Assembly (NCBI GenBank): GCA_964410925.1
Contig: CAYPIW010000086.1
Coordinates: 17,605-81,604 of the forward strand
Direction of reading: 5' to 3'
Source of the DNA: an uncultured Desulfobacteraceae bacterium
GTDB taxonomy: Bacteria > Desulfobacterota > Desulfobacteria > Desulfobacterales > UBA11574
DNA length: 64,000 nt
Positions 3,385 through 47,361 of the stretch are shown piece by piece. Numbering within the stretch: the first letter of the stretch is position 1; every line of letters begins with the position of its first letter. The notes under the pieces were generated by a model. That model was not told the origin of the DNA and did no database searches. It saw only the letters and a list, made by a program, of their open reading frames with translations. A program made the position numbers and the translations under genes.

Positions 3385-4149
3385 TTATTGGATGAATTTT
3401 GCTGCCCGGCATACGTCGCAACATGGCGGCGGCAGTTCTATTTCCCGAAATACCAAATTCAGGGCGTCGAAGGTCAACAGCCGCCCGAGCAGAAGTTTTC
3501 CGCCGCCGGTCAGGAATTTGACGGCTTCAGCGGCCTGAAGGGTTCCCAATATGCCGGGCACCACCCCCAGAACCCCGACTTGGTCGGTGGAGGATACCTG
3601 ATCCGGTTCGGGGATGTTGCCAAACACGCATCGGTAACAGGGCCCTTGACCGGGTACGATGGTCATGACCTGGCCGAACATGCCTAAGATACCGGCATGA
3701 CAAAAGGGCACCCTGGCATGAATGCATATATCGTTGACCAGAAATTTGGCGTCGAAATTATCCGTGGCTTCGATCACGAAATCGTACTCTTTTACCAACT
3801 CGTGGCCGTTTTTTGCAGTAAACCGCTCGCCGTACGGCTTAATGCAAACATCCGGGTTCAGACGATGCAATTTATCCTGTGCGGAGTGGATCTTCAGCTT
3901 GCCCAGATCCTCCGAAGTATGCAAAATCTGGCGCTGCAGGTTAGACAGTTCGACTCGATCCCCGTCTACGATACCGATAGTTCCTACGCCGGCGCAGCCC
4001 AGATAGAGTAAGGCAGGACAGCCCAACCCTCCGGCGCCTATGACCAGGACCCGACCCTTTAAAAGTTTTTGCTGTCCGGTCATACCGATTTCCGGCACCA
4101 GAATATTGCGCGAATACCGAATCTTCTGGGTTGGGGTCAAATCTTTCAT
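3385..4149 (-). CDS. thiF: ThiS/MoaD adenylyltransferase (E1-like)
   Basis: Rossmann motif VIGAGGLGC typical of ThiF/MoeB, plus CxxC pairs (CYRC, CDVC). The likely start is MKDLTPTQ at 4149. Confidence 0.8.
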
Positions 4150-4205
4150 CCGATCCTTTCCTGCGGGTTCCGGACAGCGAGGCCCTCGGTCGGCTGCCAA
4201 TTCCG

Positions 4206-5483
4206 TTAAAGCATGATACGATCAAACGTCTTAATCGCGCAAAGATCACCGCACATGGTGCAAACATCCCGATCATGATCTTCGGTCTGCATGCGGCGCT
4301 TGCGGGCCAGATTCGGGTCGATGGCCTGGCTATACATGGTTTCCCAGTCGAATTTTCGTCGTGCCAGGGACATCCTCCGATCCCAGTCACAGGACCCCGG
4401 CAGCCCCTTTTCCAGATCGCCGATATGAGCCGCAATACGCGTGGCCATGACACCGTCATGCACATCCTGGACCGTAGGCAGATGCAAGTGCTCTGCAGGT
4501 GTCAGATAACACAAGAAATCCACACCGCTGGCCGCAGCTATCGCTCCGCCGATGGCACCGACCAGATGATCGTAGCCAGGAGCAATGTCCGTGGGCAACG
4601 GCCCCAGCACGTAGTATGGTGCGTTGTCGCAAACGCGCTTTTGTAATTGCACATCCCCGGCAATGCGTCCCAGCGGAACATGTCCGGGACCTTCGATCAT
4701 TACCTGGACACCCTCATTGCGGGCGCGTCTCGCCAGATCGCCCAAAATCAAAAGCTCTGAAATTTGGGCACGATCTTCCGCATCATGGATGGCTCCGGGG
4801 CGCAGTCCATCCCCCAAAGACAGGGTAACATCATGTTGCCGGCAGATTTCCAACAAACGATCGTATTGGGAAAACAGGGGGTTTTCCTTTTTATTGGCGG
4901 TGATCCATTCGGCGATAAAGCTGCCGCCACGAGACACCATGCCCATAATCCGATTGCATCCCTTGAGGGCACTTAAGCTTTGTCGGGTGATACCGCAATG
5001 CACCGTTATGAAATCGACTCCCAGATCGGCCTGCGTCTCGATTTCCTCCATAAGGTCGTCTGCGGTCATCTGTACAGGAGTTTTGTGATTTGCCATCAAC
5101 TTGCTGACCACTTTATAGATTGGAACGGTGCCTACCATAACCGGGGAGTGTTTCAATATGGTTTCCAGTATGAGGTCTAAATTTCCGCCGGTGGAAAGGT
5201 CCATCACCGCATCCGCACCGGCCGCAACCGCGGTATCGAGTTTGACCAGTTCTTCTTTCAAATCATGGTGGCTCGGTGAAGTGCCGATATTGGCATTCAC
5301 CTTGGTTTTCAATCCCTGGCCGATGCCGCGTGCTTCAAAATTCCGGTTTCGGTTTTTGGGAATCACCACCACGCCGGCGGCTACTTTTTCTCGAACCTGT
5401 TCGGCGCTTAGACCCTCCTTTTGGGCAACCTGATGCATGGCCTCTGTAATCCGATTGCTTCGGGCCGCTTGAATCTGTGTCAT
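4206..5483 (-). CDS. thiC: phosphomethylpyrimidine synthase
   Basis: ThiC-like throughout, with the C-terminal Cys motif CTMCGDLC. The start is set to MTQIQAARS at 5483, which has a GGAGA ribosome-binding site upstream. The 55 codons upstream in the track look non-coding. Confidence 0.9.
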   Translation of the reverse strand: MTQIQAARSNRITEAMHQVAQKEGLSAEQVREKVAAGVVVIPKNRNRNFEARGIGQGLKTKVNANIGTSPSHHDLKEELVKLDTAVAAGADAVMDLSTGGNLDLILETILKHSPVMVGTVPIYKVVSKLMANHKTPVQMTADDLMEEIETQADLGVDFITVHCGITRQSLSALKGCNRIMGMVSRGGSFIAEWITANKKENPLFSQYDRLLEICRQHDVTLSLGDGLRPGAIHDAEDRAQISELLILGDLARRARNEGVQVMIEGPGHVPLGRIAGDVQLQKRVCDNAPYYVLGPLPTDIAPGYDHLVGAIGGAIAAASGVDFLCYLTPAEHLHLPTVQDVHDGVMATRIAAHIGDLEKGLPGSCDWDRRMSLARRKFDWETMYSQAIDPNLARKRRMQTEDHDRDVCTMCGDLCAIKTFDRIML

Positions 5484-5664
5484 TTCATATCTCCGTTCGT
5501 TGCGTTTTTCCCATTTTATGGGATCCGAAGGCCAGGTACTGCATTTTTGGCCTGAAATGCCGGGTTCCTTGATTGTGTTGAGCAGTGAGAAACCCGGGTT
5601 GAATAGAGGTGTTATCTGGTCGGATGGCAAAAAGGCGGCGATCGGCAAGCAAATAAATTGTATT

Positions 5665-5700
5665 AAAAAAAAAGCCGTTTTTTTGAATAAGAAAACGGCA
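5665..5700 (-). terminator. intrinsic terminator (expression platform of the TPP riboswitch)
   Basis: On the minus strand the sequence reads gccgttttcttattcaaaaaaacggc followed by a run of 9 T. It lies directly 3' of the riboswitch aptamer. Confidence 0.65.
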
Positions 5701-5721
5701 TGGACAATAACATCCGAATCG

Positions 5722-5814
5722 CATGCCCGTTTCCCTTCGCAGGTATTACCCTGATCAGGTGGTTAAGGGTTGTCCCTTGCCGGACTCTCAGATGATACCA
5801 ACACCCCTAACGAG
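5722..5814 (-). promoter_or_regulatory. TPP (THI-box) riboswitch aptamer
   Basis: The minus strand reads ggggtgttggtatcatctgagagtccggcaagggacaacccttaaccacctgatcagggtaatacctgcgaagggaa. This contains the conserved GGGGUG, CUGAGA, ACCCUU, ACCUGAUC-GGUAAUACC and GCGAAGGGAA blocks. It lies upstream of thiC. Confidence 0.9.
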
Positions 5815-5983
5815 ATAATACCATTCTAAATCCAACTGATTCGGTTGTCAAGAGATCTTTGTTTAAAGTGATACGACACTCAATAAACTAATTTTGTTGA
5901 AGTCATATATTGTGAAGGTTTGACATTGAACCGTAAATGTTTATTTTTTTAACACTTATCATAAACAACTACAGGAGGAATTC

Positions 5984-8572
5984 ATGCGTTTTGATAAATT
6001 TACTATAAAATCACAGGAACTTATTCAAAATGCCCAATCCATGGCCACAGAACATAATCACCAGCAGATCGAGCCGGAACATCTGCTTTTTGCCATGCTC
6101 AACGAACCGGAAGGAATTGCACGGGCCATGCTGAATAAACTGGGTGTTTCTTCGGATGATGTTTCCCGTGAACTTACCGCAGCTATTGATAAATTTCCAA
6201 AAGTAAGCGGATCTGCGATTGGAGACGCCTTCATATCTCCCCGGACAAAAACTGTTCTGGATGCTGCGTTTACGGAAGCCGCCAAGATGAAAGATCAATA
6301 CATCAGCATTGAACACATATTTCTTGCCATATCAGACGAAAAAAAAGGAGACGCCGCCAAAATTTTAAGGGAAAAGGGAATTTCAAGAGAAACCATTTTA
6401 AAGGTTCTCCTGGATATTCGAGGGACCCAGCGGATTACCGATCCGAACCCGGAAGAAAAATACCAGGCCCTTGACAGGTTCAGCCGTAATTTGACCGATC
6501 TGGCCCGCCTGGGCAAGCTCGATCCCGTTATCGGACGCGATGATGAAATCCGGCGGATTGTCCAGGTTCTGTCCCGGCGTAAAAAAAATAACCCCGTTTT
6601 AATCGGAGAACCGGGTGTGGGAAAAACCGCCATTGTTGAGGGGCTCGCCCAACGTATTATCTCCGGAGATGTATCTGAAAGCCTTAAAAACAGGCGGCTG
6701 GCCGCCCTTGATATGGGAGCGCTCATTGCGGGCGCCAAGTACAGGGGAGAATTTGAAGATCGTCTGAAAGCGGTTCTAAAAGAGGTGGAAAAAGCAGAGG
6801 GAGAAGTTATTCTTTTTATTGATGAGCTGCATACCCTTGTGGGAGCGGGAGCCAGCGAAGGGGCCATGGATGCTTCAAACATGTTGAAACCCGCCCTTGC
6901 CAGGGGAACCCTGCGGTGTGTGGGTGCGACCACAATCAATGAATACCGTAAGTACATTGAAAAAGATGCTGCCCTGGAACGGCGTTTTCAACCGGTTATG
7001 GTGCTTGAACCCACGGTGGAAGATACCATATCCGTGCTCCGGGGCCTTAAAGAAAAATACGAGGTCCATCACGGAGTACGGATTAAGGATTCGGCCATCG
7101 TTGCCGCTGCCACCCTGTCTCATCGCTACATTTCCGACCGATTTCTTCCCGACAAGGCCATTGACTTGATGGATGAATGCGCTTCAAAACTCAGGATCGA
7201 AATCGATAGCATGCCTGTGGAGATAGATGAGATCCAGCGCAAGATAACCCAGGCTGAAATAGAACGGGAAGCATTAAAAAAAGAATCTGATTCTGATTCC
7301 AAAAAGCGTCTTGCCGATCTTGAAGCCAGGATAAACACCCTGAAGGATGAAATCCTTGAAACCAAAGCCCACTGGCAAAATGAAAAGGATCTGATCCAGA
7401 CCATCAGAAAGATCAAGGAGCAGCAGGAGCAATTGGGTATTGAAGAACAGCAGGCTGAAAGAGAGGGGAATCTGGCAAAGGTTGCGGAGATCAGATACGG
7501 GAAGGCTGCGGAACTCAGGAACAACTTGAACCAGGCCAATGAAAAACTCGCCAATCTTCAAAAAAACAAAAAGATGCTTAAAGAGGAAGTGGATGCCGAA
7601 GACATTGCTCAGGTTATATCCAGATGGACCGGCATCCCGGTGAGCAGGATGCTTGAAGGGGAACGGGCGAAACTTATCCGTATGGAAGATCGCCTCGGGG
7701 ATCGGGTAATTGGACAAAGAAAAGCCATAGTTGCAATCTCAAATTCAGTTCGTCGGGCCCGCTCCGGGTTGCAGGACCCAAACCGGCCCATCGGATCTTT
7801 TATTTTTATGGGTCCCACCGGTGTGGGTAAGACCGAATTGGCCAAGGCGCTGGCGGAATTTCTTTTTGACAGTGAACAGGCCATGGTCAGAATTGACATG
7901 TCGGAATTTATGGAAAAGCATGCGGTTTCGAGACTGATCGGAGCGCCTCCGGGGTACGTGGGATATGAAGAAGGGGGATATCTTACCGAGGCTGTCCGCC
8001 GGAGACCCTATTCTGTGGTGCTGTTTGATGAAATCGAAAAAGCACATCCCGAGGTTTTTAATGTGCTGCTTCAGATTTTAGATGACGGACGGATGACGGA
8101 CGGCCATGGACGGACGGTCGATTTTAAGAATACGATTATCATCATGACGTCAAACGTGGGCAGCCGGTGGATTCAGGAACTCGGAGAATCAAGACGCGAA
8201 GAAATGGAATCTAGAATTACCGAAGCCCTGCGATCTAAATTCAAGCCCGAATTTTTAAACCGGATCGATGAAATCATCATTTTTGATAATCTCACACAGG
8301 AACAAATCCGTGAAATCGTCGACATCCAGGTTAAACGGCTGGGATCGCGGCTTGCTCAAATGAATATGGCCCTTGTCCTTTCAGAAAATGCGCGGAATTT
8401 TCTTGCTGAAAAAGGATTTGATCAAACATATGGCGCCCGCCCATTGAAGAGAGCCATTCAAAAATATATCGAAAATCCGCTTTCCATGGAAATTCTTCAG
8501 GGAACTGTTTCAGAAGGAACAAAGTTGAAAGCTGATGTGAAAGAAGATCGAATCGTGTTCACCCCGGTGTGA
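5984..8572 (+). CDS. clpB: ATP-dependent disaggregase chaperone ClpB
   Basis: 862 aa with a Clp N-domain, two AAA+ modules (Walker A GEPGVGKT and GPTGVGKT) and a long coiled-coil middle domain. Confidence 0.95.
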
Positions 8573-8599
8573 CAGGGAATCAATCAAGGCTGAATGCCC

Positions 8600-8627
8600 C
8601 TGACACCTGAAACCTGACACCTGAAAC
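8600..8627 (+). repeat. tandem 14-nt motif CTGACACCTGAAAC x2
   Basis: Two perfect head-to-tail copies lie just 3' of clpB. The same motif occurs as an inverted pair at 37608-37676. Confidence 0.8.
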
Positions 8628-8666
8628 CCAATAGCCCGGCGTATCATAAGCCAGGCTATTGGGTTT
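8627..8666. terminator. bidirectional stem-loop between convergent clpB and atpF
   Basis: cccaatagcc-cggcgtatcataagcc-aggctattggg forms a stem of about 10-11 bp and is followed by ttt. It lies between two convergent gene ends. Confidence 0.55.
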
Positions 8667-8706
8667 ATTGTTATGAAAAAGATTCGACCGGTTGAAATAT
8701 TAAATT

Positions 8707-9288
8707 CTATTTCACTGAGGTTAAATACTCGGCCGTCAGTTTATCATTATCTTCAGTGGTAATCTCTTTAGGAAGCCTTTCCATTGCAAGATCAAAAGCC
8801 CTGTCGATCAGTTCCGCCTTAAATTTGTTTTTGGCCTTCACAAAATAAGCATCGATTCTTCGTTTTGCATCTTCCAGCATCATCTTGCTTTGATCTTCAG
8901 CGGTTTGGATAATGGCCTCTTTTTTCTGTTCTCCCTGGCGAACAATTCGCTCTTTTAATTCTTCAAAACGGACTTCACTTTCATCGAGAATTTTCGAAGT
9001 CTCCATGATCTTACCTTTAAGCTCCGCCTTCTCATCTTCTATCTGCTTTATTTCCCGAGCCAGATTTTCTTTTTTACCCTGTAAAAAATTCATGAGAGGC
9101 GCTCTGCCAAATTTAACCAACACAAAGGCAAGTATGATGAAATTGATCCATTTTAAGATGATGTCATACGTACTGCGCCAACCCCCTGCGTTTTCAGCAG
9201 CCCAAACGTCTTGCCCGCAAAGATGAAAACTTATAATCCCGGCTAAAAAATAAACACACAGCCACATTGTTTTATCGAACCGTTTCAT
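8707..9288 (-). CDS. atpF: F-type ATP synthase Fo subunit b
   Basis: One N-terminal TM helix followed by a long charged coiled coil. The start is placed at MKRFDK (9288), which has GGAGG 7 nt upstream. Confidence 0.8.
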   Translation of the reverse strand: MKRFDKTMWLCVYFLAGIISFHLCGQDVWAAENAGGWRSTYDIILKWINFIILAFVLVKFGRAPLMNFLQGKKENLAREIKQIEDEKAELKGKIMETSKILDESEVRFEELKERIVRQGEQKKEAIIQTAEDQSKMMLEDAKRRIDAYFVKAKNKFKAELIDRAFDLAMERLPKEITTEDNDKLTAEYLTSVK

Positions 9289-9740
9289 TGAACCAGCCTC
9301 CGATCCAACAAACATTCCATGATATCCACCACCAGAGATTCCGATTTTTTTGGGATATTTTTTCTGGCATCAGAAAGCAGAGTTTCAACTTCTTTTTCAG
9401 CCTTTTGTTTGTTAGCTTTGATCTCCTTTTGGACGGAAGCGTATATCTTAGCGGCATCCTCTTTCCCTAATGCTTCGATTTCGCTCTGTAATTCAAAAGC
9501 CTGAGTTTTTGTTTCCATTTCCTTGGCTTGCAGCTTATCTTTGAGGCCTTGAAGCTCCCGGGTCGCATCCGCAATGTCGCGACTTATCTGATCTATATAG
9601 CTCTCCCTTTCGCTCATTGTATTTTGTAAAGGACGAAACATAATACGGTTAATGATAAACAAAAAGATTAGAAAGGAGATCAGTTGAGCAAACAGCGTTT
9701 CATTTATGGTTATAAGACCTATGTTGCTGATAATATGCAT
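9285..9740 (-). CDS. atpF: F-type ATP synthase Fo subunit b'
   Basis: 151 aa with a single N-terminal TM (LISFLIFLFIINRIMFRPL) and a coiled coil. It is the second b-type gene, directly upstream of b. Confidence 0.8.
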   Translation of the reverse strand: MHIISNIGLITINETLFAQLISFLIFLFIINRIMFRPLQNTMSERESYIDQISRDIADATRELQGLKDKLQAKEMETKTQAFELQSEIEALGKEDAAKIYASVQKEIKANKQKAEKEVETLLSDARKNIPKKSESLVVDIMECLLDRRLVQ

Positions 9741-9769
9741 AATCTGTTTTCCGAAAAAAACTTGAGTAG

Positions 9770-10018
9770 TTAAACAACAAAAAGAAGTAATAAAGCGATC
9801 ACCAGTGAATAGATTCCGGTGGATTCGGAAACCGCCTGACCGACGAGCATCGTTCGGGTCAAGAGTCCCGCTTCTTTGGGGTTTTTCCCGATGGCTTCAC
9901 ATGCTTTTGCAGCGGCCATGCCTTCACCGACTCCCGGTCCTATGGCTCCGAACCCCATTGAAATTCCCGCTCCCAAAAAAGCAGCTGCTTTTATAATATC
10001 CGCACCTTCGATTGCCAT
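9770..10018 (-). CDS. atpE: F-type ATP synthase Fo subunit c (single hairpin)
   Basis: 82 aa with helix-1 motif GAIGPGVGEG and helix-2 ion-site motif GQAVSESTGIYSLV. Confidence 0.9.
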   Translation of the reverse strand: MAIEGADIIKAAAFLGAGISMGFGAIGPGVGEGMAAAKACEAIGKNPKEAGLLTRTMLVGQAVSESTGIYSLVIALLLLFVV

Positions 10019-10070
10019 TTTTATCCTCCTAAAAATTTATGGTTTATTTCGTTATTAAAAGAGATTATCC

Positions 10071-11045
10071 TCACATGACAAAAATTAAAACCAGAGCGAT
10101 CACCAGTGAATAGATTCCGGTGGATTCGGAAACCGCCTGGCCTACCAGCATTGTTCTTACTAACTCTGCACTATTATTCTGATTTTTTCCTACCTGATCC
10201 ACTGCGCTGGACGCTGTCAGTCCTTCTCCGATTCCAGGACCAATAGCACCGACCCCCATGCATAAACCCGCAGCAAGTAAGGCCATGGCAGGTGCAAAAG
10301 TGTTTGTTGCCGGAAAGGTTTTGAACATCAGTATAAAGCTTATTAAAAGTCCGTATATGCCTGTTGTTTCAGTAACCGCCATTCCCAAGAGCATACTACT
10401 TGTCGAAGGTGTCGCTGCCGAAGGTTGCCTGGCCACCACCTTACAGCAGGCACCCGCAACCAAACCTTCGCCAAAACCCGGACCGGCGGCAGCTATTCCG
10501 CACGCAAGCCCTGCCCCCAGAACAGCCGCCCAGGTTGGGGAAAGGGGATGACCGGAGAAATCTAAATTTAAAAGAATAAGAGAAGTTACCAGAGCATAGA
10601 TTGCGGTTGTTTGGGCTATTGATGAACCCACCAGCATAATTGTGTTCAGGCGTTTGGTCATTGACGGCTGGCGTGCTATTCCGGCACATGCTTCGGCCGC
10701 AGGGAACCCTCCGCCCACACCTGGACCTATGGCTCCGAATCCCATACATAAACCGGCCCCTATATAAATTGGCACATTGATAATCGACGGATGGGGGTTT
10801 TTTAAAAACAGCAACATCATCGCAACGATCAGGCCGAAAATCCCGGCTGTCTCGGCAATGGCCTGTCCCACCAGCATGGTTTTAAAAATTTCACCTGACA
10901 TCTGGGGATTGCGCGATATGGCCTCATTGGCCTTGGAAGCCGCATATCCTTCACCAATTCCTGCTCCAATGGCGCTCAAACCCATGGAGATTCCGCTTCC
11001 CACAAATGCAGCCACATTTATCCAGATATTCATATCATATGACAT
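10071..11045 (-). CDS. fused ATP synthase c subunit with four tandem hairpins (about 8 TM)
   Basis: 324 aa containing four c-subunit repeats. The motif pairs are GAGIGEG/AIAETAGIF, GPGVGGG/SIAQTTAIY, GPGFGEG/AVTETTGIY and GPGIGEG/AVSESTGIY. It lies between atpB and atpE. Confidence 0.85.
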   Translation of the reverse strand: MSYDMNIWINVAAFVGSGISMGLSAIGAGIGEGYAASKANEAISRNPQMSGEIFKTMLVGQAIAETAGIFGLIVAMMLLFLKNPHPSIINVPIYIGAGLCMGFGAIGPGVGGGFPAAEACAGIARQPSMTKRLNTIMLVGSSIAQTTAIYALVTSLILLNLDFSGHPLSPTWAAVLGAGLACGIAAAGPGFGEGLVAGACCKVVARQPSAATPSTSSMLLGMAVTETTGIYGLLISFILMFKTFPATNTFAPAMALLAAGLCMGVGAIGPGIGEGLTASSAVDQVGKNQNNSAELVRTMLVGQAVSESTGIYSLVIALVLIFVM

Positions 11046-11048
11046 AAC

Positions 11049-11723
11049 TTAATTAACCTGCACTGAAATGTATACAAGCGTTAGCATGGTAAACACAAAA
11101 GCCTGAATGGTGCCGACAAAAAGTCCAAAAAAAGCATTTAAAAACGGTGGGAAAATGATACTGTAGGTCAGATAGGATACCACTAGAATAATAATCGACC
11201 CCCCCATAATATTGCCGAACAGACGGAATGAGATGGAAACAATCTTGGCAAGTTCACCGATTACGTTCAGCGGCGCCATGATAAAGATCGGGTGGCAGTA
11301 ATCTAATAGATACCGTTTTAAACCCTTGGCCTTAATTCCGGAATAATGGGCAATGAAAAACCCCATGATGCCCAGACTTAACGGCGTGTTGAGGTCCTTG
11401 GTCGGTTCTTCAAGGTGAGGAATGAGTCCCAGCCAGTTGCAAACTAACAGAAACATAAACAGCGCACATATTAGGGGTGCATATTTTTTTGCCAGCTTCT
11501 CATCCAGGGCATCCCCAGTCAAACCGTAAAGGCCTGTAATAAATAATTCTCCCACTACCTGTAAGGGCCCTGGCAGCATATTCCGTTTTCTGGCAGCCAA
11601 AAAACCAAAACAAATCAACCCTGAGATAACGATCCAGGTCATTACAATAATTTCAAGATTAAAGACCATATCGTGTCCGAAAAACGGAACGATGAGTTGA
11701 TGGATTCTACCTAAATCTTCCAT
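11049..11723 (-). CDS. atpB: F-type ATP synthase Fo subunit a
   Basis: 224-aa polytopic protein with the conserved a-subunit arginine region SISFRLFGNIMGG. Confidence 0.9.
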   Translation of the reverse strand: MEDLGRIHQLIVPFFGHDMVFNLEIIVMTWIVISGLICFGFLAARKRNMLPGPLQVVGELFITGLYGLTGDALDEKLAKKYAPLICALFMFLLVCNWLGLIPHLEEPTKDLNTPLSLGIMGFFIAHYSGIKAKGLKRYLLDYCHPIFIMAPLNVIGELAKIVSISFRLFGNIMGGSIIILVVSYLTYSIIFPPFLNAFFGLFVGTIQAFVFTMLTLVYISVQVN

Positions 11724-11735
11724 AATAAAATCTTC

Positions 11736-12122
11736 CTAAACCTGTTTTCCACGGGCGGACCATAACAAAGTTAACACGTGATCCGCCATAATAAAAATCT
11801 GGACAAAAAAGATACCGATAACGACAGCAACAAAATTGTAGTGTTCAAATTTTATGGCCAGTATCAATGGCACGGCTAAAATAAAATATCTGAACAGTAT
11901 GGAACTCAGGGAAAACAAAAAAGTTTTGCCTTTTGATTTGCCTATTTTTAAGGGAAGCGTTTCCCCCATTAAAATAAAATTGATAATACTGAAAATCGTT
12001 CCCAAAATCAAACCCTTGCCAATGGGTTTGAAATCCATCAGGATAAATAAAAGTCCTGTAAAAATTGCAACCATGATTGCTCGGGTACAGTATTTTTTTT
12101 GGGTTTGTCTAAGGGTCTCCAT
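11736..12122 (-). CDS. atpI: ATP synthase protein I (AtpI-like)
   Basis: 128 aa with four hydrophobic segments, positioned immediately upstream of atpB. Confidence 0.6.
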   Translation of the reverse strand: METLRQTQKKYCTRAIMVAIFTGLLFILMDFKPIGKGLILGTIFSIINFILMGETLPLKIGKSKGKTFLFSLSSILFRYFILAVPLILAIKFEHYNFVAVVIGIFFVQIFIMADHVLTLLWSARGKQV

Positions 12123-12393
12123 TTTCGGAATTTATTTTCTCATTTTCCTTTTGTTCGGTGATCTCGAGAATTTGACGATATACAACGTTTGCGCCACCGA
12201 TAACACCCAAAATAATAAAGATGCTGATAAACACCCCCCGTGTTCCCAGCCATCTGTCAAGATATAGTCCGATAAAAAAACAAAAAGTGATACAACCGGC
12301 CATCGTAAGGCCCAGTTGCGTAACGATATAAAGATTTTCGACCCAGGGACGGTTCCTTTTGTAGTCAAAAACCTTTCTTTTCTTTTTTGGCAT
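12109..12393 (-). CDS. atpZ: AtpZ-like small membrane protein (ATPase_gene1 family)
   Basis: 94 aa with a basic N-terminus and two TM helices (LGLTMAGCITFCFFIGLYLDRWLG). It is the first gene of the atp operon and overlaps atpI. Confidence 0.55.
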   Translation of the reverse strand: MPKKKRKVFDYKRNRPWVENLYIVTQLGLTMAGCITFCFFIGLYLDRWLGTRGVFISIFIILGVIGGANVVYRQILEITEQKENEKINSENGDP

Positions 12394-12712
12394 CCTGCCT
12401 GATAAAAACTTTATAAATTCGAAGCACTGCTTTGTTGTTTAATAAATGCCCCTGAAAAAAATGATAGACTGATAACAGATATTATTTGGAACTGTCAAGA
12501 AGATAAACGATTTTTTTTGCTTTATATGAATCGAAAAAAAAGTGTGATTGCATTAATTTTTTTTTGTAATATGGTATAAGTTATTCAACGCTTGTCCGAA
12601 TATCTTGTTTTTTTGGCCAAAAATTCGATACCTGAAGCCAGGGCCTCGAATTTCACATGGGTTTAAAACAAAATCTTAACTGTTAAAGATAAGAGTTTGA
12701 CTGAATGCCCCT

Positions 12713-13702
12713 ATGACACTTTCCGCCGTCGAAAAATTGCGCCGTTTTTATGAAGCGTTCGGGGGAGACAACACGGTTCTTATCCTGATCAATGCCGATC
12801 CGGATTCCATTGCAAGCGCGATGGCTGTCAAAAGATTGCTTTGGCGCAAAGTCTCCAGAGTAACCATTTCCAATATCAACATCATTAAACGTCCGGACAA
12901 TCTTGCAATGGTCCGACTATTGGATGTGGATCTTGTCTCCGTCAAAGACATTGTCAAAGACGCCTTCAACCGTTTTGTAATTGTGGATTCCCAGCCCGAT
13001 CATAATGAAATATTTAAAGAGTACCCGCCGCATGTCATTATAGACCATCATCCCGACACGGGCACGAATGCGCCTTTTGTGGATATCCGCCCGAAATACG
13101 GAGCAACTGCTACTATTATGACCGAATATTTAAGGGCGGCAAAAATTAAACCTTCCGGGAAACTGGCCACCGGCCTGTTTTACGCCATTAAAACAGATAC
13201 GGACAATTTCGTACGTCAAACCTTAATTGAAGATGTCAGGGCATTTCAGTTTCTTTACCGCCATGCAAATCTTCATCTTATCAACAAGATCGAGCAGTCG
13301 GAATTGACACTCGACTTTTTAAAATATTTCAAAAGTGCCCTTGATAGCAAACGGGTTCGTAAAGGACATATGTTTGCTTACCTCGGTCCGGTCGCAAATC
13401 CTGACATTTGCGTGATTATCGCAGATTTTTTTATGAAAATCATCTCGGTGAACTGGAGCATTGTCTCCGGGTTATATAGTAAAAAACTGATTATCGTGTT
13501 CAGAAACGACGGTCTTCGCAAGGATGCAGGTAAAGTCGCAAAACAAAGTTTCGGACAAATCGGTTCCGCAGGCGGCCATAAAAGCGCGGCACGTGCTGAA
13601 ATTTCAGTTGAAGCCTTAAAAGAAGTTGTCGATTATAAGGATGATAAAAAGCTTTTAAGATGGATCATCAACAAAATTGAAAAAAAAGCAGGAAAAAAAT
13701 GA
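12713..13702 (+). CDS. DHH-family phosphoesterase (NrnA-like oligoribonuclease/pAp phosphatase)
   Basis: 329 aa with DHH motifs (NADPDSIASA, VIIDHHPD) and a DHHA1 GGH motif (GSAGGHKSAARA). Confidence 0.8.
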   Translation: MTLSAVEKLRRFYEAFGGDNTVLILINADPDSIASAMAVKRLLWRKVSRVTISNINIIKRPDNLAMVRLLDVDLVSVKDIVKDAFNRFVIVDSQPDHNEIFKEYPPHVIIDHHPDTGTNAPFVDIRPKYGATATIMTEYLRAAKIKPSGKLATGLFYAIKTDTDNFVRQTLIEDVRAFQFLYRHANLHLINKIEQSELTLDFLKYFKSALDSKRVRKGHMFAYLGPVANPDICVIIADFFMKIISVNWSIVSGLYSKKLIIVFRNDGLRKDAGKVAKQSFGQIGSAGGHKSAARAEISVEALKEVVDYKDDKKLLRWIINKIEKKAGKK

Positions 13703-14484
13703 GTACTGCTTCCGTCGAAATATCTGTCACCATTTTGGGTTCCGGAACATGCGTGCCTTCTCTTAAGCGCAGTTCATGCTCAATACTCATGAAAATAAGG
13801 GACAAATTTCTTTTGTTCGATTCCGGAGCCGGTACCATGCGCAGGCTTCTTGAATACGGTATTGAGATTTTCGATATTTCTTTTGTCTTTTACAGTCATT
13901 TCCACCCGGATCATACCGCTGAACTGGTCCCGTTTTTATTCGCCAACAAATATCCCGACGGAAGCCGGCGTAACATTCCGCTGACCCTGACGGCCGGAAG
14001 AGGCTTCACAAAATTCTATGACAACCTGAAAAATGTTTACGGCCGCTGGATCGAACTTGGACCGGATCTTTTAACCATTGTTGAACTCGACAATACCGGT
14101 CATGACATGATAGCGTTTGATGATTTTAAAGTGGAATCGCTTCCGGTTGAGCACAACCCGGAAAGCATTGCATTCAGAATAACCAGTCCCGGCGGGACAT
14201 CCGCGGTCTATTCCGGAGATACGGATTTTTCAGAAAACCTGGTGACCCTTTCAAAGGATGCGGATCTTCTTGTTTGTGAATCGGCGCTTCCCGATGAATT
14301 GAAGGTAAAAGGGCATCTTACCCCTTCTCTGGCAGGGGAGATTGCAACCCGGGCCAATGTTCGCAAACTGGTGTTGACCCATTTTTATCCGGAATGCAAC
14401 CGGGTCGATATCGAGAAACAGTGCCGAAAAACCTATTCCGGACCTCTGCTCCTTGCAGAAGATCTGATGCAAATCCATCTATAG
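13699..14484 (+). CDS. MBL-fold metallo-hydrolase (RNase Z/BN-like)
   Basis: 261 aa with the HxHxDH motif (YSHFHPDH). It overlaps the DHH gene stop by 4 nt (ATGA). Confidence 0.75.
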   Translation: MSTASVEISVTILGSGTCVPSLKRSSCSILMKIRDKFLLFDSGAGTMRRLLEYGIEIFDISFVFYSHFHPDHTAELVPFLFANKYPDGSRRNIPLTLTAGRGFTKFYDNLKNVYGRWIELGPDLLTIVELDNTGHDMIAFDDFKVESLPVEHNPESIAFRITSPGGTSAVYSGDTDFSENLVTLSKDADLLVCESALPDELKVKGHLTPSLAGEIATRANVRKLVLTHFYPECNRVDIEKQCRKTYSGPLLLAEDLMQIHL

Positions 14485-17400
14485 CAATCCAACGGCGTCG
14501 GACGCCGGTTCTGTGGAATGATCCCGTGCAATCAGCATGTAAATGGACGGAACAATAAAAAGGGTGAAAAGACTGCCGATGGCCATGCCGCCGACGATCA
14601 CCAGACCGATGGAATTTCGCGCCGCGGCACCTGCGCCCGTAACCAGGGTCAACGGGAAATGACCGGCAATCGTGGCTCCGGTGGTCATGAGAATCGGTCG
14701 CAGCCGCGTCAAGGCCGCCTCTCGAACCGCCTCGTGTTTGGATCGTCCCTCTGCCTGGACCTTATTGGCAAACTCCACAATAAGAATGCCGTTCTTGGAC
14801 ACCAGCCCCACCAGCGTCACGAGGCCCACCTGGGAATAGATATTCATTGTAGAGGTCCAGCCGTGGGTCCAAAACGGAATATTGGGGTCCGGCATTTTAA
14901 GGAAAGTGAATACCAGCGCACCGAACATGGCCAGCGGCACCGATCCGGCAAGGATGACAAAAGGGTCGCGAAAGCTGTTAAATTGTGCGGCCAGCACTAA
15001 AAAAATAAGCACCACGGCAAACCCGAAAGCGGGCAGGAATTTGTTGGCTTCCATGCGCAACTGGCGGGATTCTCCGGTGTAATCAATTATGTAGCCTTTT
15101 GGAAGAATTTTTGCCGCTTCGTCCTCAAGATAGCGAAGCGCTTCATCCAGGGGACGCACCGATACCCCGCTGATCTTTACGGCATTTAACTGCTGGAATC
15201 GGTTCATGGAGCGCGGTACGGTGGTATTACGGATGGAAGCCACCGTACTGAAGGGCACCAGATGACCCTCCGGGCCGGTGATATAAATATTATTGAGCTG
15301 TTCCGGATTGAGTCGATCCACCCGTTTGATTTGGGGAATGACCTTGTAGCTGCGGCCGGCGATATTAAAGCGATTCACGAAATCTCCCCCCAGCATGGAC
15401 GCCATGTCTGCCCCAACCTGCTCAAGGTTGAGACCCAGGTCCGCCACCCGATCACGATCAATAACCAGTTCTGCCTGGGGCTGGTCAATCTTAACGTCAA
15501 TAATGGGGGGAAAAGCAAACAAGCCGCTTTGCATGGCCTTGATCTGAATCTGTTTGGCAAAGGAGAGGATCTGTTCCGATTCTGCCGTGGAAGCAAGGAT
15601 AAACTCAACGGGGAACTCCCCTCCCCCGGGAAGCGCCGCCGGTGTTACCGGAAGCACTCGAACCCCGGGTATGGCATGCAATTTTTGCTGCACTTCGGGC
15701 AAAATCTGAAAAATATTCCGTTCTCGTTCGCTCCAGGGGACAGTGGCCATACCGCCGAATCCGGAGGAGGGCATGGTCAGCTGAAATGTGTGGTCCGTTT
15801 CCGGTATACTTAAGAAAACCTGGTTCACCGCAGCCGCAGAATGACTGGTCTGGTCAAGGGTTGCGTTTGCCGCAGCATCAATGATACCGAAGATCACCCC
15901 CTGATCCTCGGAAGGTGCAAGTTCTGCCGGAGACATGATAAACATAGGGATAGTGAGCAAACTGACCACTAACCACACTATATAGACCGCCGGACGGGCG
16001 TTAAGAGTGGCATTCAGCAATCGTCCGTATCCGTCTCTAACACGGCTGAACCCCCGGGAAATTTTTCCGGCCAGTCCCCGTTCTTCAATCCCCGGTTTCA
16101 GTAATTTGGATGCCATCATCGGAGAAAGCGTCAGGGCCACCAAACCGGAAATGGTCACCGCACCGGCCAGGGTAAACGCAAACTCCCTGAAAAGCGATCC
16201 GGTAAGCCCTCCCTGCAAAGCGATGGGGATGTAAACCGCCGCAAGGGAAACCGTCATGGCAATGATAGGACCGACAAGTTCACGGGCCCCCAGTATTGCG
16301 GCATCAAAGGGAGACAGCCCTCTTCTCAGATGCCGCTCCACATTTTCCACCACCACGATGGCATCGTCCACCACAAGCCCCACGGAAAGTACGATGGCAA
16401 GCAGGGTGAGCAAGTTAATGGTAAAGCCAAACATCTGCATCAGAAAGACCGCGCCGATAAGGGACAGGGGAATGGCGACCACAGGGATTAATACGGATCG
16501 AAAGGAACCGAGAAACAGAAAAATAATGATCACAACAATGAGCAGGGTTTCACCGAGGGTTTTGGTCACTTCTCGAATGGCGTTTTGGATGTATTTGGTG
16601 CCATCGTAGGCAACGCTCGCGTCCATTCCTGTGGGAAGTTCCTTTTGAATGCCTTGCATCTGGACACGAATCCGGTTAATGACATCCAGGGAATTGGCAT
16701 TCGGCAGGGGCCAGATGCCCATAAACACGGCGGTTTGTCCTGAAAAACGCACTTCCGTATCATAATCTTCCGCCCCCAACACGATGTCTGCAATATCCTC
16801 AAGTCTGATAATGGCGCCATTCTGCTGCCGGATAACCAGCTGTTTGAATTCTTTTGTGGAGCGCAGGTCCGTATCGGCGGTCAGATTCACCTGAATCAGC
16901 GCCCCTTTGGTCCGGCCCACTGCGGCAAGGTAATTGTTGGCGGCCAGCGCGCGTCGCACCTGCACCGGGCTGACGTTGAATGCCGCCATGCGATCGGGCT
17001 TCAGCCAGATGCGCATGGCAAATGTCCTGCCGCCGAGAATATCGGCCCGTTGCACCCCTTCTACCGAAGAGAGTCGGGGTTGAACCACACGAACCAGGTA
17101 GTCGGTGATCTCATTTTGCATCAGCACATCGGAAGTAAAACTCAGATACGATGAGGCAAACCGGCTCTCGGCCGATTCCACATTAATGATGGGAACCTCT
17201 GCTTCCGGGGGCAAATCGTTTCGAACCTGATCCACCTTGGAACTGATTTCGGAAAGCGCCTGGATGGGATCGTAATTGAGTTTCAAGCGAATGTTGATGG
17301 TGGAGAGGCCCAGTGCGCTTTGAGATTCCATATAGTCGATGCCGTCGGCCGCGGCAATGGCACGTTCCAGGGGGGTGGTAATAAATCCCCGGACAAGATC

Positions 17401-40033: not shown

Positions 40034-41761
40034 ATGAAACAGCGATTTCAATGTGTGGCCGGAAGCATCATTTTTTTACTGGTGCTCTGCATCCTGACTA
40101 CCGACGGATATGCGGCAGAACGCGGTATCAATGTTGTGAAGATAATCGACGCCCAGGGGCTGGAAGTCGGTTTATATCACCAAAGCCATGCTTTGGTTAT
40201 CGGTGTCAGTAACTATAATGAAGGATGGCCTCCATTGCCGGGTGTTCAGCAGGATGTCAGGGAAGTATGCCTTGTTTTAAAGGAACATGGATTTAACGTA
40301 GAAACTGTTACCAATCCCACAAGAACGAAGTTGAACCAAGCGTTTTTAAATTTCATCAATCGGTATGGCCAAACCGTCGAAAATCGCTTGCTGTTTTATT
40401 TTGCCGGTCATGGTCATACGCGCAAGCTGGCTTACGGCGAAGATATGGGCTATATTGTGCCGGTGGATGCACCGAACCCCAGTCGTGATCCTCAGGGCTT
40501 CACCGTAAAAGCGATGGATATGCAGGAAATTGAGGTATTTGCCAAACGCATCCAGTCAAAACATGCCTTGTTCATCTTCGACAGTTGTTTTTCCGGTTCC
40601 ATTTTCTCTTTATCAAGGGCGGCCCCCGACAACATCACTTACAAAACGGCCAAGCCCGTACGCCAATTCATCACTTCCGGGAGTGCCGAGGAGAATGTCC
40701 CGGATAAAAGTGTTTTTCGCCAGCAATTCATCGCGGCTCTGAAAGGAAATGCCGATGCGGATAAGGATGGGTATGTCACGGGCATGGAACTGGGAGAATT
40801 CCTGCAGAAACAAGTAGTTAATTATTCCCATAACTGCCAGCATCCACAATATGGTAAAATTCGAAATCCTCATTTGGACAAAGGAGACTTTGTATTCGTC
40901 ATGCCCGTGCCAAAATCACTCTCCCGTCTCGTCCAAAAGCCACCCATTCCCGGTTCAACGGCTGAATCGGTCAACCCGGACACCTTTGAACTTACCTTCT
41001 GGAACTCTATTAAAGACAGTTCCAACCCGGACGATTACCTCGCCTATCTGAAACAGTATCCCAATGGCCGTTTTGCTGCATTGGCCAAAATCAGAGCAAA
41101 GCCAGCTACACAGGTAAAAGCAACCCCGGATACAAGAGTATCTCCGCAACAAATAGATACATGGTTACAGCAGGCCAAAGGGCATCTGGCCACCTCCCGG
41201 TTGACCAGCCCCAGGGGAAATAATGCCCGCGAATTATATCAGAAAGTGCTGAACATAGACCCGGACAATCCGGATGCCCGAGAGGGGCTTCACGAGATAG
41301 CCGACAAATATTTGGACTTGGCAACGCAAGCTCTTGATGAGGAAAACTTGTCCAAAGCAAAGACTTATGTGAACCGGGGTTTGGAAGTCGTAAAAGATCA
41401 TGAGGGTTTGTTGGAGTTGCAGATGGGATTAGTAACAGGGCAACCGGACTCTGATGAGCGATTCTCGCACCCTCCACCAAGTTACCCTGCACATGGTGGC
41501 ATACCCCGTAGCAATCTGAACGGTGTGTGGCAGAGCCAGGATGGAACCATCGTTTTTATAGAAGGTAACAGCTATAGGATCTCTTTAGGCAACTCTGTAA
41601 TGGATATGGGCAGCTACACCTTGCAGGGGAATCAAATTGTCGTCTATAGCATGATGGGCTTAAACAGAATCGTGAGCTACTCTTTGCAGGAAAATAAGTT
41701 AACCTTCTTTGATTATTCGAGTGGTTATCCACTGACCACTGTCTACTATCGTATGAAATAA
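40034..41761 (+). CDS. exported caspase-fold (peptidase C14) protein with TPR-like region
   Basis: Signal peptide. The caspase dyad contexts are FYFAGHGHT and IFDSCFSGS. An EF-hand-like ADADKDGYVTGMELGEF and the motif YLKQYPNGRFAALA follow. It is paralogous to 45503..47056. Confidence 0.8.
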   Translation: MKQRFQCVAGSIIFLLVLCILTTDGYAAERGINVVKIIDAQGLEVGLYHQSHALVIGVSNYNEGWPPLPGVQQDVREVCLVLKEHGFNVETVTNPTRTKLNQAFLNFINRYGQTVENRLLFYFAGHGHTRKLAYGEDMGYIVPVDAPNPSRDPQGFTVKAMDMQEIEVFAKRIQSKHALFIFDSCFSGSIFSLSRAAPDNITYKTAKPVRQFITSGSAEENVPDKSVFRQQFIAALKGNADADKDGYVTGMELGEFLQKQVVNYSHNCQHPQYGKIRNPHLDKGDFVFVMPVPKSLSRLVQKPPIPGSTAESVNPDTFELTFWNSIKDSSNPDDYLAYLKQYPNGRFAALAKIRAKPATQVKATPDTRVSPQQIDTWLQQAKGHLATSRLTSPRGNNARELYQKVLNIDPDNPDAREGLHEIADKYLDLATQALDEENLSKAKTYVNRGLEVVKDHEGLLELQMGLVTGQPDSDERFSHPPPSYPAHGGIPRSNLNGVWQSQDGTIVFIEGNSYRISLGNSVMDMGSYTLQGNQIVVYSMMGLNRIVSYSLQENKLTFFDYSSGYPLTTVYYRMK

Positions 41762-43388: not shown

Positions 43389-44600
43389 GTGACTGTCAAC
43401 GATACTGCAGGTTTTTTGCAGGAGGCAATAATGGTAAACTTTTTACGGAAAAACCTGTCTTTCCTGGCAAATAACCCAATGTTCAAGGGGTTGTCCAATG
43501 ACCAGCTTGAAGAGGTCATCCAAGTGCTGGAAGAAGTGCATGTCAAGGCAGGAGAAATAATAACTATGGAGGGAAATCCCGCATCAGAACTCTATTTCAT
43601 AAAAAGTGGTACCGCAGAAGTTTTTAAGAAAGAACCCGGGATTGATTATGAACATCGGCTGTCAGCACTGTCACCGGGCGACAGCATCGGTGAAATGCCG
43701 GTTCTGGATTGCAAACCTCGTTCGGCTTCTGTCCGGGCGGTTTCGGATTGTTCCCTTTTACTGCTTAAAAATGACAAACTACAATCCCTTTCAGCGGCCG
43801 AAGAATCCGCCTATTCCAAGATCAAAAGCAATCTGAGTTGTGAAATGAGTGAGCGCTTACGTCAGACCAACGAAATGACGGTACGTTCCTTACGAATACA
43901 GCTGGCCGAAGAAAAATCCAGAGTCTCTATGGGAATTCTCATCTGCATGCTGCTGGTGGGAATATGTTTGTATGTGTTCTCTCTACAGGTTATTGCATCT
44001 TGGGCCAAGGCGGCGTCAACAACTACGGTAGTTAGCGTAAACATTATCTTCCTGTTTGCGGCAATGTCTTTTTTTGTTATTAAAAAAGGTGGTTATCCCT
44101 TTAGTATGTACGGTCTCACTACGGATAACTGGCGCCAATCGGTGATGGAGTCTATTCTGTTTCTGGTCCCTATTCTACTATTCTTATACGTTCTGAAATG
44201 GGTTTACCTGACCCGGCTCTCCGGCATGCAGGAATATCCGTTGATATCCCTGGGACAACATTTAAAACTAAGCAAAATCGGCCTCATCATCACTTGTTTA
44301 GCCTATTCGCTGTTCGCCCCTGTGCAGGAATTTATCGCCAGGGGATGCTTTCAATCTTCCTTTCAAAATTTCCTGACAGGCAAATATAGAACTTTGACTG
44401 CCATTGTTATTTCAAATCTTATGTTCAGTATGACCCATCTTCGCATCTCCATCAGTTTTGCTCTGGTAGCCTTTATTCCCGGACTTTTCTGGGGGTGGCA
44501 ATATGGACGTCATAAAACGCTCATCGGAATTTCAATTTCACATATTATCATCGGCCTATCCGCTTCTATTTTCATTGGGTTCCCGGGAGTTTTATCATAA
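43389..44600 (+). CDS. cyclic-nucleotide-binding domain fused to a CPBP (CAAX/Abi) intramembrane protease domain
   Basis: The cNMP-binding beta-roll is NPASELYFIKSGTAEV...GDSIGEMPVLDCKPRSASVRA. About 6 TM segments follow, with CPBP-like motifs PVQEFIARG, MFSMTHL and ISISHIIIG. An alternative start is MVNFLRK at 43431. Confidence 0.65.
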   Translation: MTVNDTAGFLQEAIMVNFLRKNLSFLANNPMFKGLSNDQLEEVIQVLEEVHVKAGEIITMEGNPASELYFIKSGTAEVFKKEPGIDYEHRLSALSPGDSIGEMPVLDCKPRSASVRAVSDCSLLLLKNDKLQSLSAAEESAYSKIKSNLSCEMSERLRQTNEMTVRSLRIQLAEEKSRVSMGILICMLLVGICLYVFSLQVIASWAKAASTTTVVSVNIIFLFAAMSFFVIKKGGYPFSMYGLTTDNWRQSVMESILFLVPILLFLYVLKWVYLTRLSGMQEYPLISLGQHLKLSKIGLIITCLAYSLFAPVQEFIARGCFQSSFQNFLTGKYRTLTAIVISNLMFSMTHLRISISFALVAFIPGLFWGWQYGRHKTLIGISISHIIIGLSASIFIGFPGVLS

Positions 44601-47056: not shown

Positions 47057-47361
47057 CCTCCCTGGTTGCGGCCTTCTCAACGGTTTCTTATTACGGCAAA
47101 GCTCTGCCAAATATCCTAACCATATATAAAAGAACCTGCTTAAATATGGAAAAAAGTCAAGCGGTTTTGATTAAATTAAACCGGGGGAAAAAATATTTTC
47201 AGGCCACTTGATTACAATTATAAAATGTATTCTTTATTGACGTTTAAATATTAGATGATGTAGATTGTTTTTATGATATCGTGCTGGTATTCATATCGCG
47301 TAATTTGCTGATATCATACTATATTTATACAGAAAATCCTGCAGGAAACAAGGCGTATCAA

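Follow-up and report, generated by a model that had tools for sequence, protein, structure and literature searches.

How does an ATP synthase operon come to carry a gene for four consecutive c-subunit hairpins, one of them lacking the carboxylate that binds the coupling ion, immediately ahead of a normal c-subunit gene, and what would such a protein do in the rotor? The question is raised by a 64,000-nucleotide stretch of DNA from an uncultured Desulfobacteraceae bacterium (contig CAYPIW010000086.1; the whole stretch is referred to here as the window), in which an open reading frame (ORF) of 324 amino acids (aa) plus stop codon occupies positions 10071..11045 of the minus strand, between atpB and an 82-aa atpE. 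The best explanation of the sequence data is that this ORF, hereafter the fusion, codes for a working rotor subunit, fused long ago, in an F1Fo ATP synthase of the Na+ type. This subunit probably enters a hybrid Na+-coupled c-ring together with the 82-aa product of atpE, hereafter the monomer, and would cost that ring one ion site per copy.

How many ions are translocated for each ATP normally follows from how many identical c subunits the ring contains, with one ion site per hairpin. To our knowledge, the only characterised bacterial F-type exception is the ring of Acetobacterium woodii, from which one site is removed by a two-hairpin subunit, c1. In the papers that could be read, bacterial F-type c subunits are single hairpins, except for the c1 type of A. 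woodii and C. aceticum (PMC9171764; PMC2359735). In the searchable full texts, where an earlier mention could still have been missed, F-type c subunits of three or more hairpins were not found described, and a 2026 paper on the related Desulfatiglandales mentions just "two to four atpE copies." This agrees with an earlier note on this DNA, made from the sequence alone, to which no four-hairpin c subunit of a bacterial F-type operon was known.

The fusion is a member of the c-subunit family with one degenerate repeat. Four distinct segments of the ORF are hit by the Pfam model PF00137, at E 9.3e-64 and 212 bits (the cut-off being 24), well past anything due to chance, and these matches, with the ORF coordinates, agree with the earlier note in placing four consecutive c-subunit repeats in a 324-aa ORF between atpB and the 82-aa atpE. 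All four hairpins (R1 to R4) have the Gly-rich GxGxGxG packing motif of helix 1, and the helix-2 carboxylate looked for in every hairpin is present in R1, R3 and R4 and replaced by Gln145 in R2. The structure check that the note had proposed was run with AlphaFold2 on a 12-sequence alignment and predicted four hairpins built from eight long helices and connected through linkers of 7–9 residues, with a mean predicted local distance difference test score (pLDDT) of 94.1 and a predicted template modelling score (pTM) of 0.90. The repeats share 33–41% identity in protein and only 44–51% in DNA, which rules out collapsed, identical tandem copies of atpE and points instead to an old fusion; the reading frame is intact, and the assembled sequence contains neither stop codons nor gaps between the repeats.

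Assignments to other rotor classes were considered and rejected. NCBIfam holds no dedicated model for the fusion; its single-hairpin F-type models match four times and score highest, with the V-type K models scoring under their cut-offs. For the N-ATPase model TIGR03322, the monomer reaches 68 bits against a cut-off of 130.85, and the fusion passes only through the summing of its four repeats; nor does the N-ATPase operon order, atpDCQRBEFAG, agree with the atpZ-I-B-E-E-F'-F found here. In public annotation, homologues of the fusion are plainly labelled "ATP synthase F0 subunit C."

Ion binding can be followed hairpin by hairpin using the monomer (9770..10018, minus strand; PF00137, E 1.7e-18) as reference, since its motif, E32...V63-x-E65-S66-T67...Y70, is of the two-carboxylate Na+ type. 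The helix-1 motifs of R1 to R4 are GAGIGEG, GPGVGGG, GPGFGEG and GPGIGEG and the helix-2 motifs AIAETAGIF, SIAQTTAIY, AVTETTGIY and AVSESTGIY, all eight exactly as first quoted. R1 (aa 1–82, 10800..11045) keeps Glu32 and Glu65, but has Ala and Phe at positions 67 and 70 instead of Thr and Tyr. R2 (aa 83–163, 10557..10799) has Gly112 (codon 10710–10712) and Gln145 (codon 10611–10613) instead of the two carboxylates, and is almost certainly unable to carry an ion; the note had seen both substitutions, and the Gln is invariant in the four-hairpin homologues described below. R3 (aa 164–244, 10314..10556) has both Glu193 and Glu226, so that its site appears live in this protein, although in most relatives R3 is also dead (Gly/Gln). 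R4 (aa 245–324, 10074..10313) combines Glu274 and Glu307 with Ser-Thr-Tyr, and the two-carboxylate Na+ motif (Glu32, Glu65, Ser/Thr66, Thr67, Tyr70) is complete in R4 as it is in the monomer.

In the rings of F. nucleatum and I. tartaricus, one subunit contributes Glu/Gln32 and Glu65 to ion binding and its neighbor the Val63 carbonyl oxygen and Ser66, with Tyr70 and Thr67 as supporting residues (PMC3692424; PMC2359735). The fusions vary in a way that agrees with these crystal structures, in which adjacent subunits share the Na+ ligands. Where Thr/Ser67 and Tyr70 are kept in hairpin i, hairpin i+1 has Glu in 71/71 cases, and where the 67/70 ligands are lost in hairpin i, Glu is missing from hairpin i+1 in 178 of 194 cases, whereas no association between the 67/70 ligands and Glu was found within one and the same hairpin of the fusions. 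The direction of the interface, from i to i+1, is based on this covariation and on the published structures. Throughout the fusion family, Ala/Phe in R1 and a dead R2 are constant, and the last hairpin always has Ser-Thr-Tyr, even where its own Glu is replaced by Gln, which suggests that a live hairpin comes next in the ring. The dead sites are thus best described as co-evolved interfaces, in which Thr67 and Tyr70 appear to have been lost from the hairpin whose next hairpin loses its Glu. The fusion in the window has exactly one such interface, R1|R2, with Ala/Phe on R1, its upstream half, and Gly/Gln on R2. R2 itself retains Thr/Thr/Tyr, completing the R3 site, as R3 completes that of R4 and R4 that of the hairpin which follows.

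Selection has acted on all four hairpins. Against close relatives, the ratio of non-synonymous to synonymous substitution rates (dN/dS) is 0.19–0.33 in each of them, so that even the dead R2 is still constrained, compared with about 0.04 for the monomer. In an alignment of 12 orthologues with 65–82% identity to the window protein, columns are on average 81% identical.

The translation signals of the two c genes differ. The fusion starts with ATG, 3 nucleotides past the stop codon of atpB (Fo subunit a, PF00119, E 3.1e-50; 11049..11723, minus strand), and the distance from the nearest upstream stop triplet to the fusion start is 0–4 nucleotides in 83 of 87 loci, the triplet being the stop codon of atpB where checked. 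The fusion is predicted from this arrangement to be translationally coupled to the gene for the single-copy a subunit. The monomer has a strong Shine-Dalgarno sequence of its own, AGGAGG at 10025..10030 on the minus strand, within the 52-nucleotide spacer between the two c genes. The Shine-Dalgarno pairing of the fusion is weaker than that of the monomer in 84/84 paired loci, with medians of −4.8 and −10.3 kcal/mol, respectively, and duplex energies in the window of −3.9 and −10.2 kcal/mol. Weak signals for the fusion and strong ones for the monomer would be expected if the fusion were made in roughly the amount of the a subunit and the monomer in large excess.

The gene is not confined to the window. 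A homologue search covering 5.8 billion proteins returned >2,000 matches, and each of the top 120 protein matches is a multi-hairpin protein of about 324, 405 or 485 aa. Site patterns were assigned by a hidden Markov model-based parse of the helix-2 residue, written as one letter per hairpin. Among the four-hairpin homologues (n = 49) the patterns are EQEE (30) and EQQE (19), among the five-hairpin homologues (n = 55) EQQQQ (36) and EQQQE (19), and most of the about 17 six-hairpin homologues are EQQQQQ; three-hairpin forms with an EQE pattern also exist. A second set consisted of the best 80 loci of a species-representative genome collection, all with a full four-hairpin protein. The orthologue search that had been called for thus placed the fusion, as an uninterrupted gene, on independent contigs of at least 80 species-representative genomes, complete chromosomes among them. 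Carriers include Desulfosarcina variabilis (complete chromosome, NZ_CP159846), D. cetonica and Desulfatibacillum alkenivorans, as well as Desulfatitalea, Desulfococcus and Desulfatirhabdium. The fusions of Desulfosarcina variabilis and Desulfatibacillum alkenivorans are of the EQQE form, and that of the Eth-SRB2 group is EQEE. With the window counted, 84 four-hairpin loci divide into about 56 EQQE, 15 EQEE and 13 EQQQ, and hairpin 2 is Gln in all 84 of them, just as it is in 49/49 of the four-hairpin homologues. The window belongs to the EQEE class, which has the most live sites of any four-hairpin class. Taken together, these sequences indicate that the fusion gene is not rare, but is widespread in the Desulfobacterales as a member of a series of three to six hairpins with one to five adjacent, predicted dead sites.

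Hairpins within this series are orthologous by position, the five-hairpin form reading R1-R2-R2'-R3-R4 and the six-hairpin form R1-R2-R2'-R2''-R3-R4, which suggests that the family grew as the dead R2 was duplicated. Forms with N = 4, 5 and 6 all have their genes in the order atpZ-I-B-c(N)-c(82 aa)-F'-F. A monomer gene directly follows the fusion in the window and in 80 of 83 related four-hairpin loci; of the three loci without one, two break off no more than about 200 bases from the fusion gene, and at locus L028 the sequence continues for about 1.1 kb past the fusion with no monomer gene there. All full-length monomers have the helix-1 Glu and the helix-2 Glu-Ser-Thr...Tyr. The five- and six-hairpin orthologues (L084, L085 and L086; proteins P0012–P0120), in which one or two Glu sites are left, are likewise followed by an 82-aa monomer gene. 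Two monomer genes follow the fusion at locus L072, resembling atpE2 and atpE3 of A. woodii, and the metagenome-assembled genome CSMAG_469 holds two fusion loci (L028 and L023) with coverages of 20x and 254x, which may reflect either mixed binning or a second copy.

The closest relatives of the window protein (78–81% identity) include that of Desulfobacteraceae bacterium Eth-SRB2, with flanking DNA 87–90% identical, and an energy-limited anaerobe, the setting the earlier note had in mind, is plausible from this kinship. A comparison of window positions 4018–15158 with locus L014 (JBARSG010000120.1) showed flanks 88–90% identical and an Fo operon (8673–12578) only 72–75% identical, the L014 fusion being EQQE, with two live sites, against EQEE in the window. 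This suggests that the Fo operon was swapped as a cassette by recombination between lineages, altering the number of ion sites.

In the mechanism that we propose, the fusion would insert into the membrane as eight helices and join a c-ring made up with many 82-aa monomers, with probably few fusion copies per ring and possibly one. Each ion site would be an interface, the helix-1 and helix-2 Glu being provided by hairpin i+1 and the Val63 carbonyl oxygen, Ser/Thr66, Thr67 and Tyr70 by hairpin i. The R1|R2 interface would then be dead on both sides, and the sites of R1, R3, R4 and the hairpin after R4 complete. One copy would occupy four hairpins of the circumference and offer three ion carriers, lowering the ratio of ions to ATP by a third of an ion, for example from 11/3 to 10/3 ions per ATP in a ring of 11 hairpins. 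By this account the fusion would hold the dead interface beside its co-adapted neighbors and, in relatives with several dead sites, keep those sites adjacent. In relatives with the EQQQQQ pattern, with one site per six hairpins, a ring made of fusions only is energetically implausible, so that the monomer would have to supply most of the sites there. From the sequences at hand we infer the co-assembly of fusion and monomer in one c-ring and its stoichiometry, and equally the Na+ coupling and any physiological benefit. The lowered ion/ATP ratio foreseen in the earlier note is retained in this scheme, as each fusion copy would remove one site. The figure of three sites per four hairpins given there is not, since it holds only for a ring composed solely of fusions, and the monomer gene and the asymmetry of the Shine-Dalgarno signals favor a hybrid ring.

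Such a fusion-only ring is nevertheless conceivable, for example as three copies giving 12 hairpins, nine sites and 3 ions per ATP, with the monomer forming a separate ring for other conditions. V- and A-type rotors consist of multi-hairpin subunits only (PMC2359735; PMC9171764), nine sites per ring would be energetically reasonable for the EQEE form, and an R4|R1 contact would give a complete site, the Glu pair of R1 being live and the Ser-Thr-Tyr of R4 kept. However, the weak translation signals of the fusion and its coupling to the a subunit stand against the strong Shine-Dalgarno sequence of the monomer in 84/84 loci, the monomer is kept in essentially every locus under far stronger purifying selection (dN/dS 0.04 against 0.2–0.3), orthologues with one site per five to six hairpins could not plausibly work in this way, and the A. 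woodii precedent is a mixed ring. We therefore regard a ring of fusions alone as unlikely. A similarly low probability is given to the fusion as an assembly template, seeding the c-ring or determining how large or how curved it is, perhaps with AtpI and AtpZ, the lost site being a tolerated by-product. Its coupling to atpB and its position downstream of the assembly-related atpI and atpZ would suit this role, a covalent quarter or third of a ring is a natural nucleus, and the fusion evolves faster than the monomer. Yet the two sides of the dead interface have co-evolved, with no variation at hairpin 2, and it was exactly the dead hairpin that was duplicated as the family expanded, which argues for selection acting on how many sites are dead and not for scaffolding alone; a template role is in any case compatible with a hybrid ring and does not exclude it.

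The exact 45-nucleotide repeat described below, which is shared by R4 and the monomer, could be taken as a sign of mis-assembled tandem atpE copies or of a decaying duplication. This is very improbable and effectively refuted, as the repeats are too divergent in DNA, the frame is intact, the gene is under purifying selection with a confidently predicted fold, and many species carry it, on contigs that are independent of one another and on complete chromosomes. Certain observations do weigh against the hybrid Na+-coupled ring itself. The Na+ assignment depends on a sequence motif, the F1 genes are absent from the window, and the strength of a Shine-Dalgarno sequence reflects protein level imperfectly. 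The cases counted for the covariation are not phylogenetically independent and include 16 exceptions, the closest relatives of the window among them, in which an R2 with Thr-Pro-Phe (TPF) stands beside an R3 with Asp/Glu. Furthermore, as related in PMC8809890, a single E56Q substitution abolished ATP synthesis in an engineered, H+-coupled fused c10 ring (Mitome, 2004), so that tolerance of a dead site is not automatic and the natural runs of Gln are noteworthy.

If the fusions do enter the ring, the ATP yield per ion and the threshold driving force of their carriers, a marine group of sulfate reducers and syntrophic partners that is ecologically dominant, need recalculation. A wider reading, offered tentatively, is that the natural family of poly-hairpin F-type c subunits, in the Desulfobacterales and independently in others such as the Dependentiae, represents a genetically encoded gear-setting of the ATP synthase. 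Were this true, the ion/ATP ratio would be tuned by killing interfaces, by duplicating the dead hairpin or by swapping Fo operon cassettes, and in an assumed ring of 11 hairpins with one fusion copy it would range from about 3.3 to about 2. A working Fo would also have to step over several hairpins without carboxylates, whereas engineered rings suggest otherwise. How Fo rotates past up to five such consecutive hairpins is a mechanical question in its own right, and the fusion family offers natural, co-adapted sequences with which to test models of cooperation between c subunits. As cultured carriers exist (Desulfosarcina variabilis, D. cetonica and Desulfatibacillum alkenivorans), the question is directly testable.

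The fusion sits in an F-type Fo operon that includes atpB (subunit a) to atpF (subunit b), with the order atpZ-atpI-atpB-c(4x)-c(82 aa)-atpF'-atpF on the minus strand. The first gene is atpZ-like (PF09527, ATPase_gene1, E 1.2e-13; 12109..12393), its position in the operon being unchanged in relatives, and is followed by atpI (PF03899, E 1.9e-9; 11736..12122). Downstream of the two c genes lie atpF' (b' subunit; 9285..9740) and, as the last gene, atpF (b subunit; 8707..9315), both assigned by Pfam to PF00430. F1 genes were not found in the window, nor was an alpha or beta Walker-A motif anywhere in its 64 kb, so the operon is split, with Fo separate. A second rotary ATPase was also looked for within the window and none was found, and a promoter and terminator scan of the operon gave matches no more frequent than in shuffled sequence.

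R4 resembles the monomer in more than its site motif. The helix-2 region of R4 (10095–10139) and monomer atpE (9794–9838; both minus strand) share an exact DNA match of 45 nucleotides, which is the longest R4/monomer match among about 80 loci, where the median is 14 nucleotides. This patch looks like local gene conversion confined to this lineage. General concerted evolution of R4 and the monomer was rejected, because the protein identity of helix 2 is 0.84 within and between genomes alike; the use of identical codons is 0.50 in the within-genome and 0.43 in the between-genome comparison. Across the family, the R4–monomer similarity is best accounted for by constraint at the protein level. In F-type enzymes, the R/K-N/Q-P motif of the cytoplasmic loop touches the central stalk. 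It reads RNP in R1, RQP in R2 and R3 and KNP in the monomer, and in R4 (aa 285–287, 10185–10193) it is KNQ, the proline being gone; the consensus of 12 orthologue sequences there is R-N-E.

Outside the operon, the window holds two caspase-domain (Peptidase_C14) proteins interleaved with proteins that bind cyclic nucleotide monophosphates (40034–41761, 45503–47110, 43389–44600 and 49263–50744). One of the nucleotide-binding proteins is fused to an Rce1-like protease domain and one to an MscS channel, with a phospholipase D-like protein also nearby. This may be a signalling or defence cluster unrelated to the fusion.

More distant matches of the homologue search reach beyond the Desulfobacterales. 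A four-hairpin lineage with 27–32% identity and the pattern E-Q-E-D (P0181, P0194, P0220 and about 24 further cluster representatives) is abundant and independent; its hairpin 2 is again dead, and the label of one member reads "ATP synthase F0 subunit C" from Candidatus Dependentiae. Other matches are rotors in which one very long polypeptide holds 7–14 hairpins, with Glu kept in nearly all of them: P0127 and P0285 (1139–1147 aa), labelled as Promethearchaeota and Hodarchaeota (Asgard archaea); P0140 (524 aa), labelled as Gracilibacteria; and P0144 (968 aa) and P0187 (1042 aa).

Among known systems, several hairpins in one polypeptide are a feature of the archaeal A-type and V-type proteolipids, which have two hairpins in NtpK of E. 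hirae, three in M. jannaschii and 13 in M. kandleri, and in which ion sites are often lost (PMC2359735; PMC9171764). Their fold fits two of the four hairpins of the fusion (TMt about 0.8), but they belong to another enzyme class and operon type and have no co-encoded monomer. The c11 ring of Fusobacterium nucleatum (PDB 3ZK1; PMC3692424), the third-best PDB match by sequence, has the ligands Glu32, Val63, Glu65, Ser66, Thr67 and Tyr70 as in the monomer and R4; unlike anything built with the fusion, it is a homomer of single hairpins without dead sites. Engineered fused c subunits (c2 to c10 of Bacillus PS3; c2 and c3 of E. coli) assemble into working F-type rings, in which two impaired sites are tolerated best when adjacent (PMC8809890). 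These constructs are artificial and H+-coupled, whereas the natural fusions carry one to five Gln sites with co-adapted neighbors.

The closest parallel is c1 of the F/V-hybrid Na+ rotor of A. woodii (4BEM_J), the analogy drawn at the outset and the best PDB match by both sequence (phmmer E 4e-30) and fold. Foldseek superimposed the two with a root-mean-square deviation of 1.3 Å over 164 columns at 37% identity, covering half of the query (TMq 0.47), and none of the PDB matches was a solved chain spanning more than two of the four hairpins. The arrangement known for c1 is found here, a multi-hairpin c gene with a carboxylate-less hairpin adjoining a single-hairpin c gene, and in both F-type operons it comes right after atpB and before the single-hairpin c gene or genes. 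In both proteins hairpin 1 is live, hairpin 2 has Gln for Glu, Phe replaces Tyr70 ahead of the dead hairpin and the live hairpins have Na+-type ligands, so that c1, with AETSGIF followed by AQTTGIY, presents the dead-interface pattern independently. Common descent is not supported, since for both c1 hairpins the nearest class is that of the monomer, with identities of 0.55 and 0.47, rather than R1 or R2, at the limited resolution that hairpins of about 80 residues allow; on this comparison the fusion and c1 would have arisen independently.

The two systems also differ in several respects. The A. woodii protein has two hairpins, like the V-type 16-kDa proteolipid, against four in the 324 aa of the fusion; its helix-1 position is Gln, where the fusion has the Glu of the two-carboxylate type; and its operon includes the F1 genes, whereas Fo is separate in the window. 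The A. woodii ring consists of nine single-hairpin c subunits and one c1, with 10 Na+ sites on 11 hairpins (PMC9171764; PMC7793690), and this 9:1 stoichiometry was measured. If the hybrid ring proposed above is correct, the Desulfobacterales would have taken the same trick further than A. woodii, with four to six hairpins in one polypeptide and up to five adjacent dead sites.

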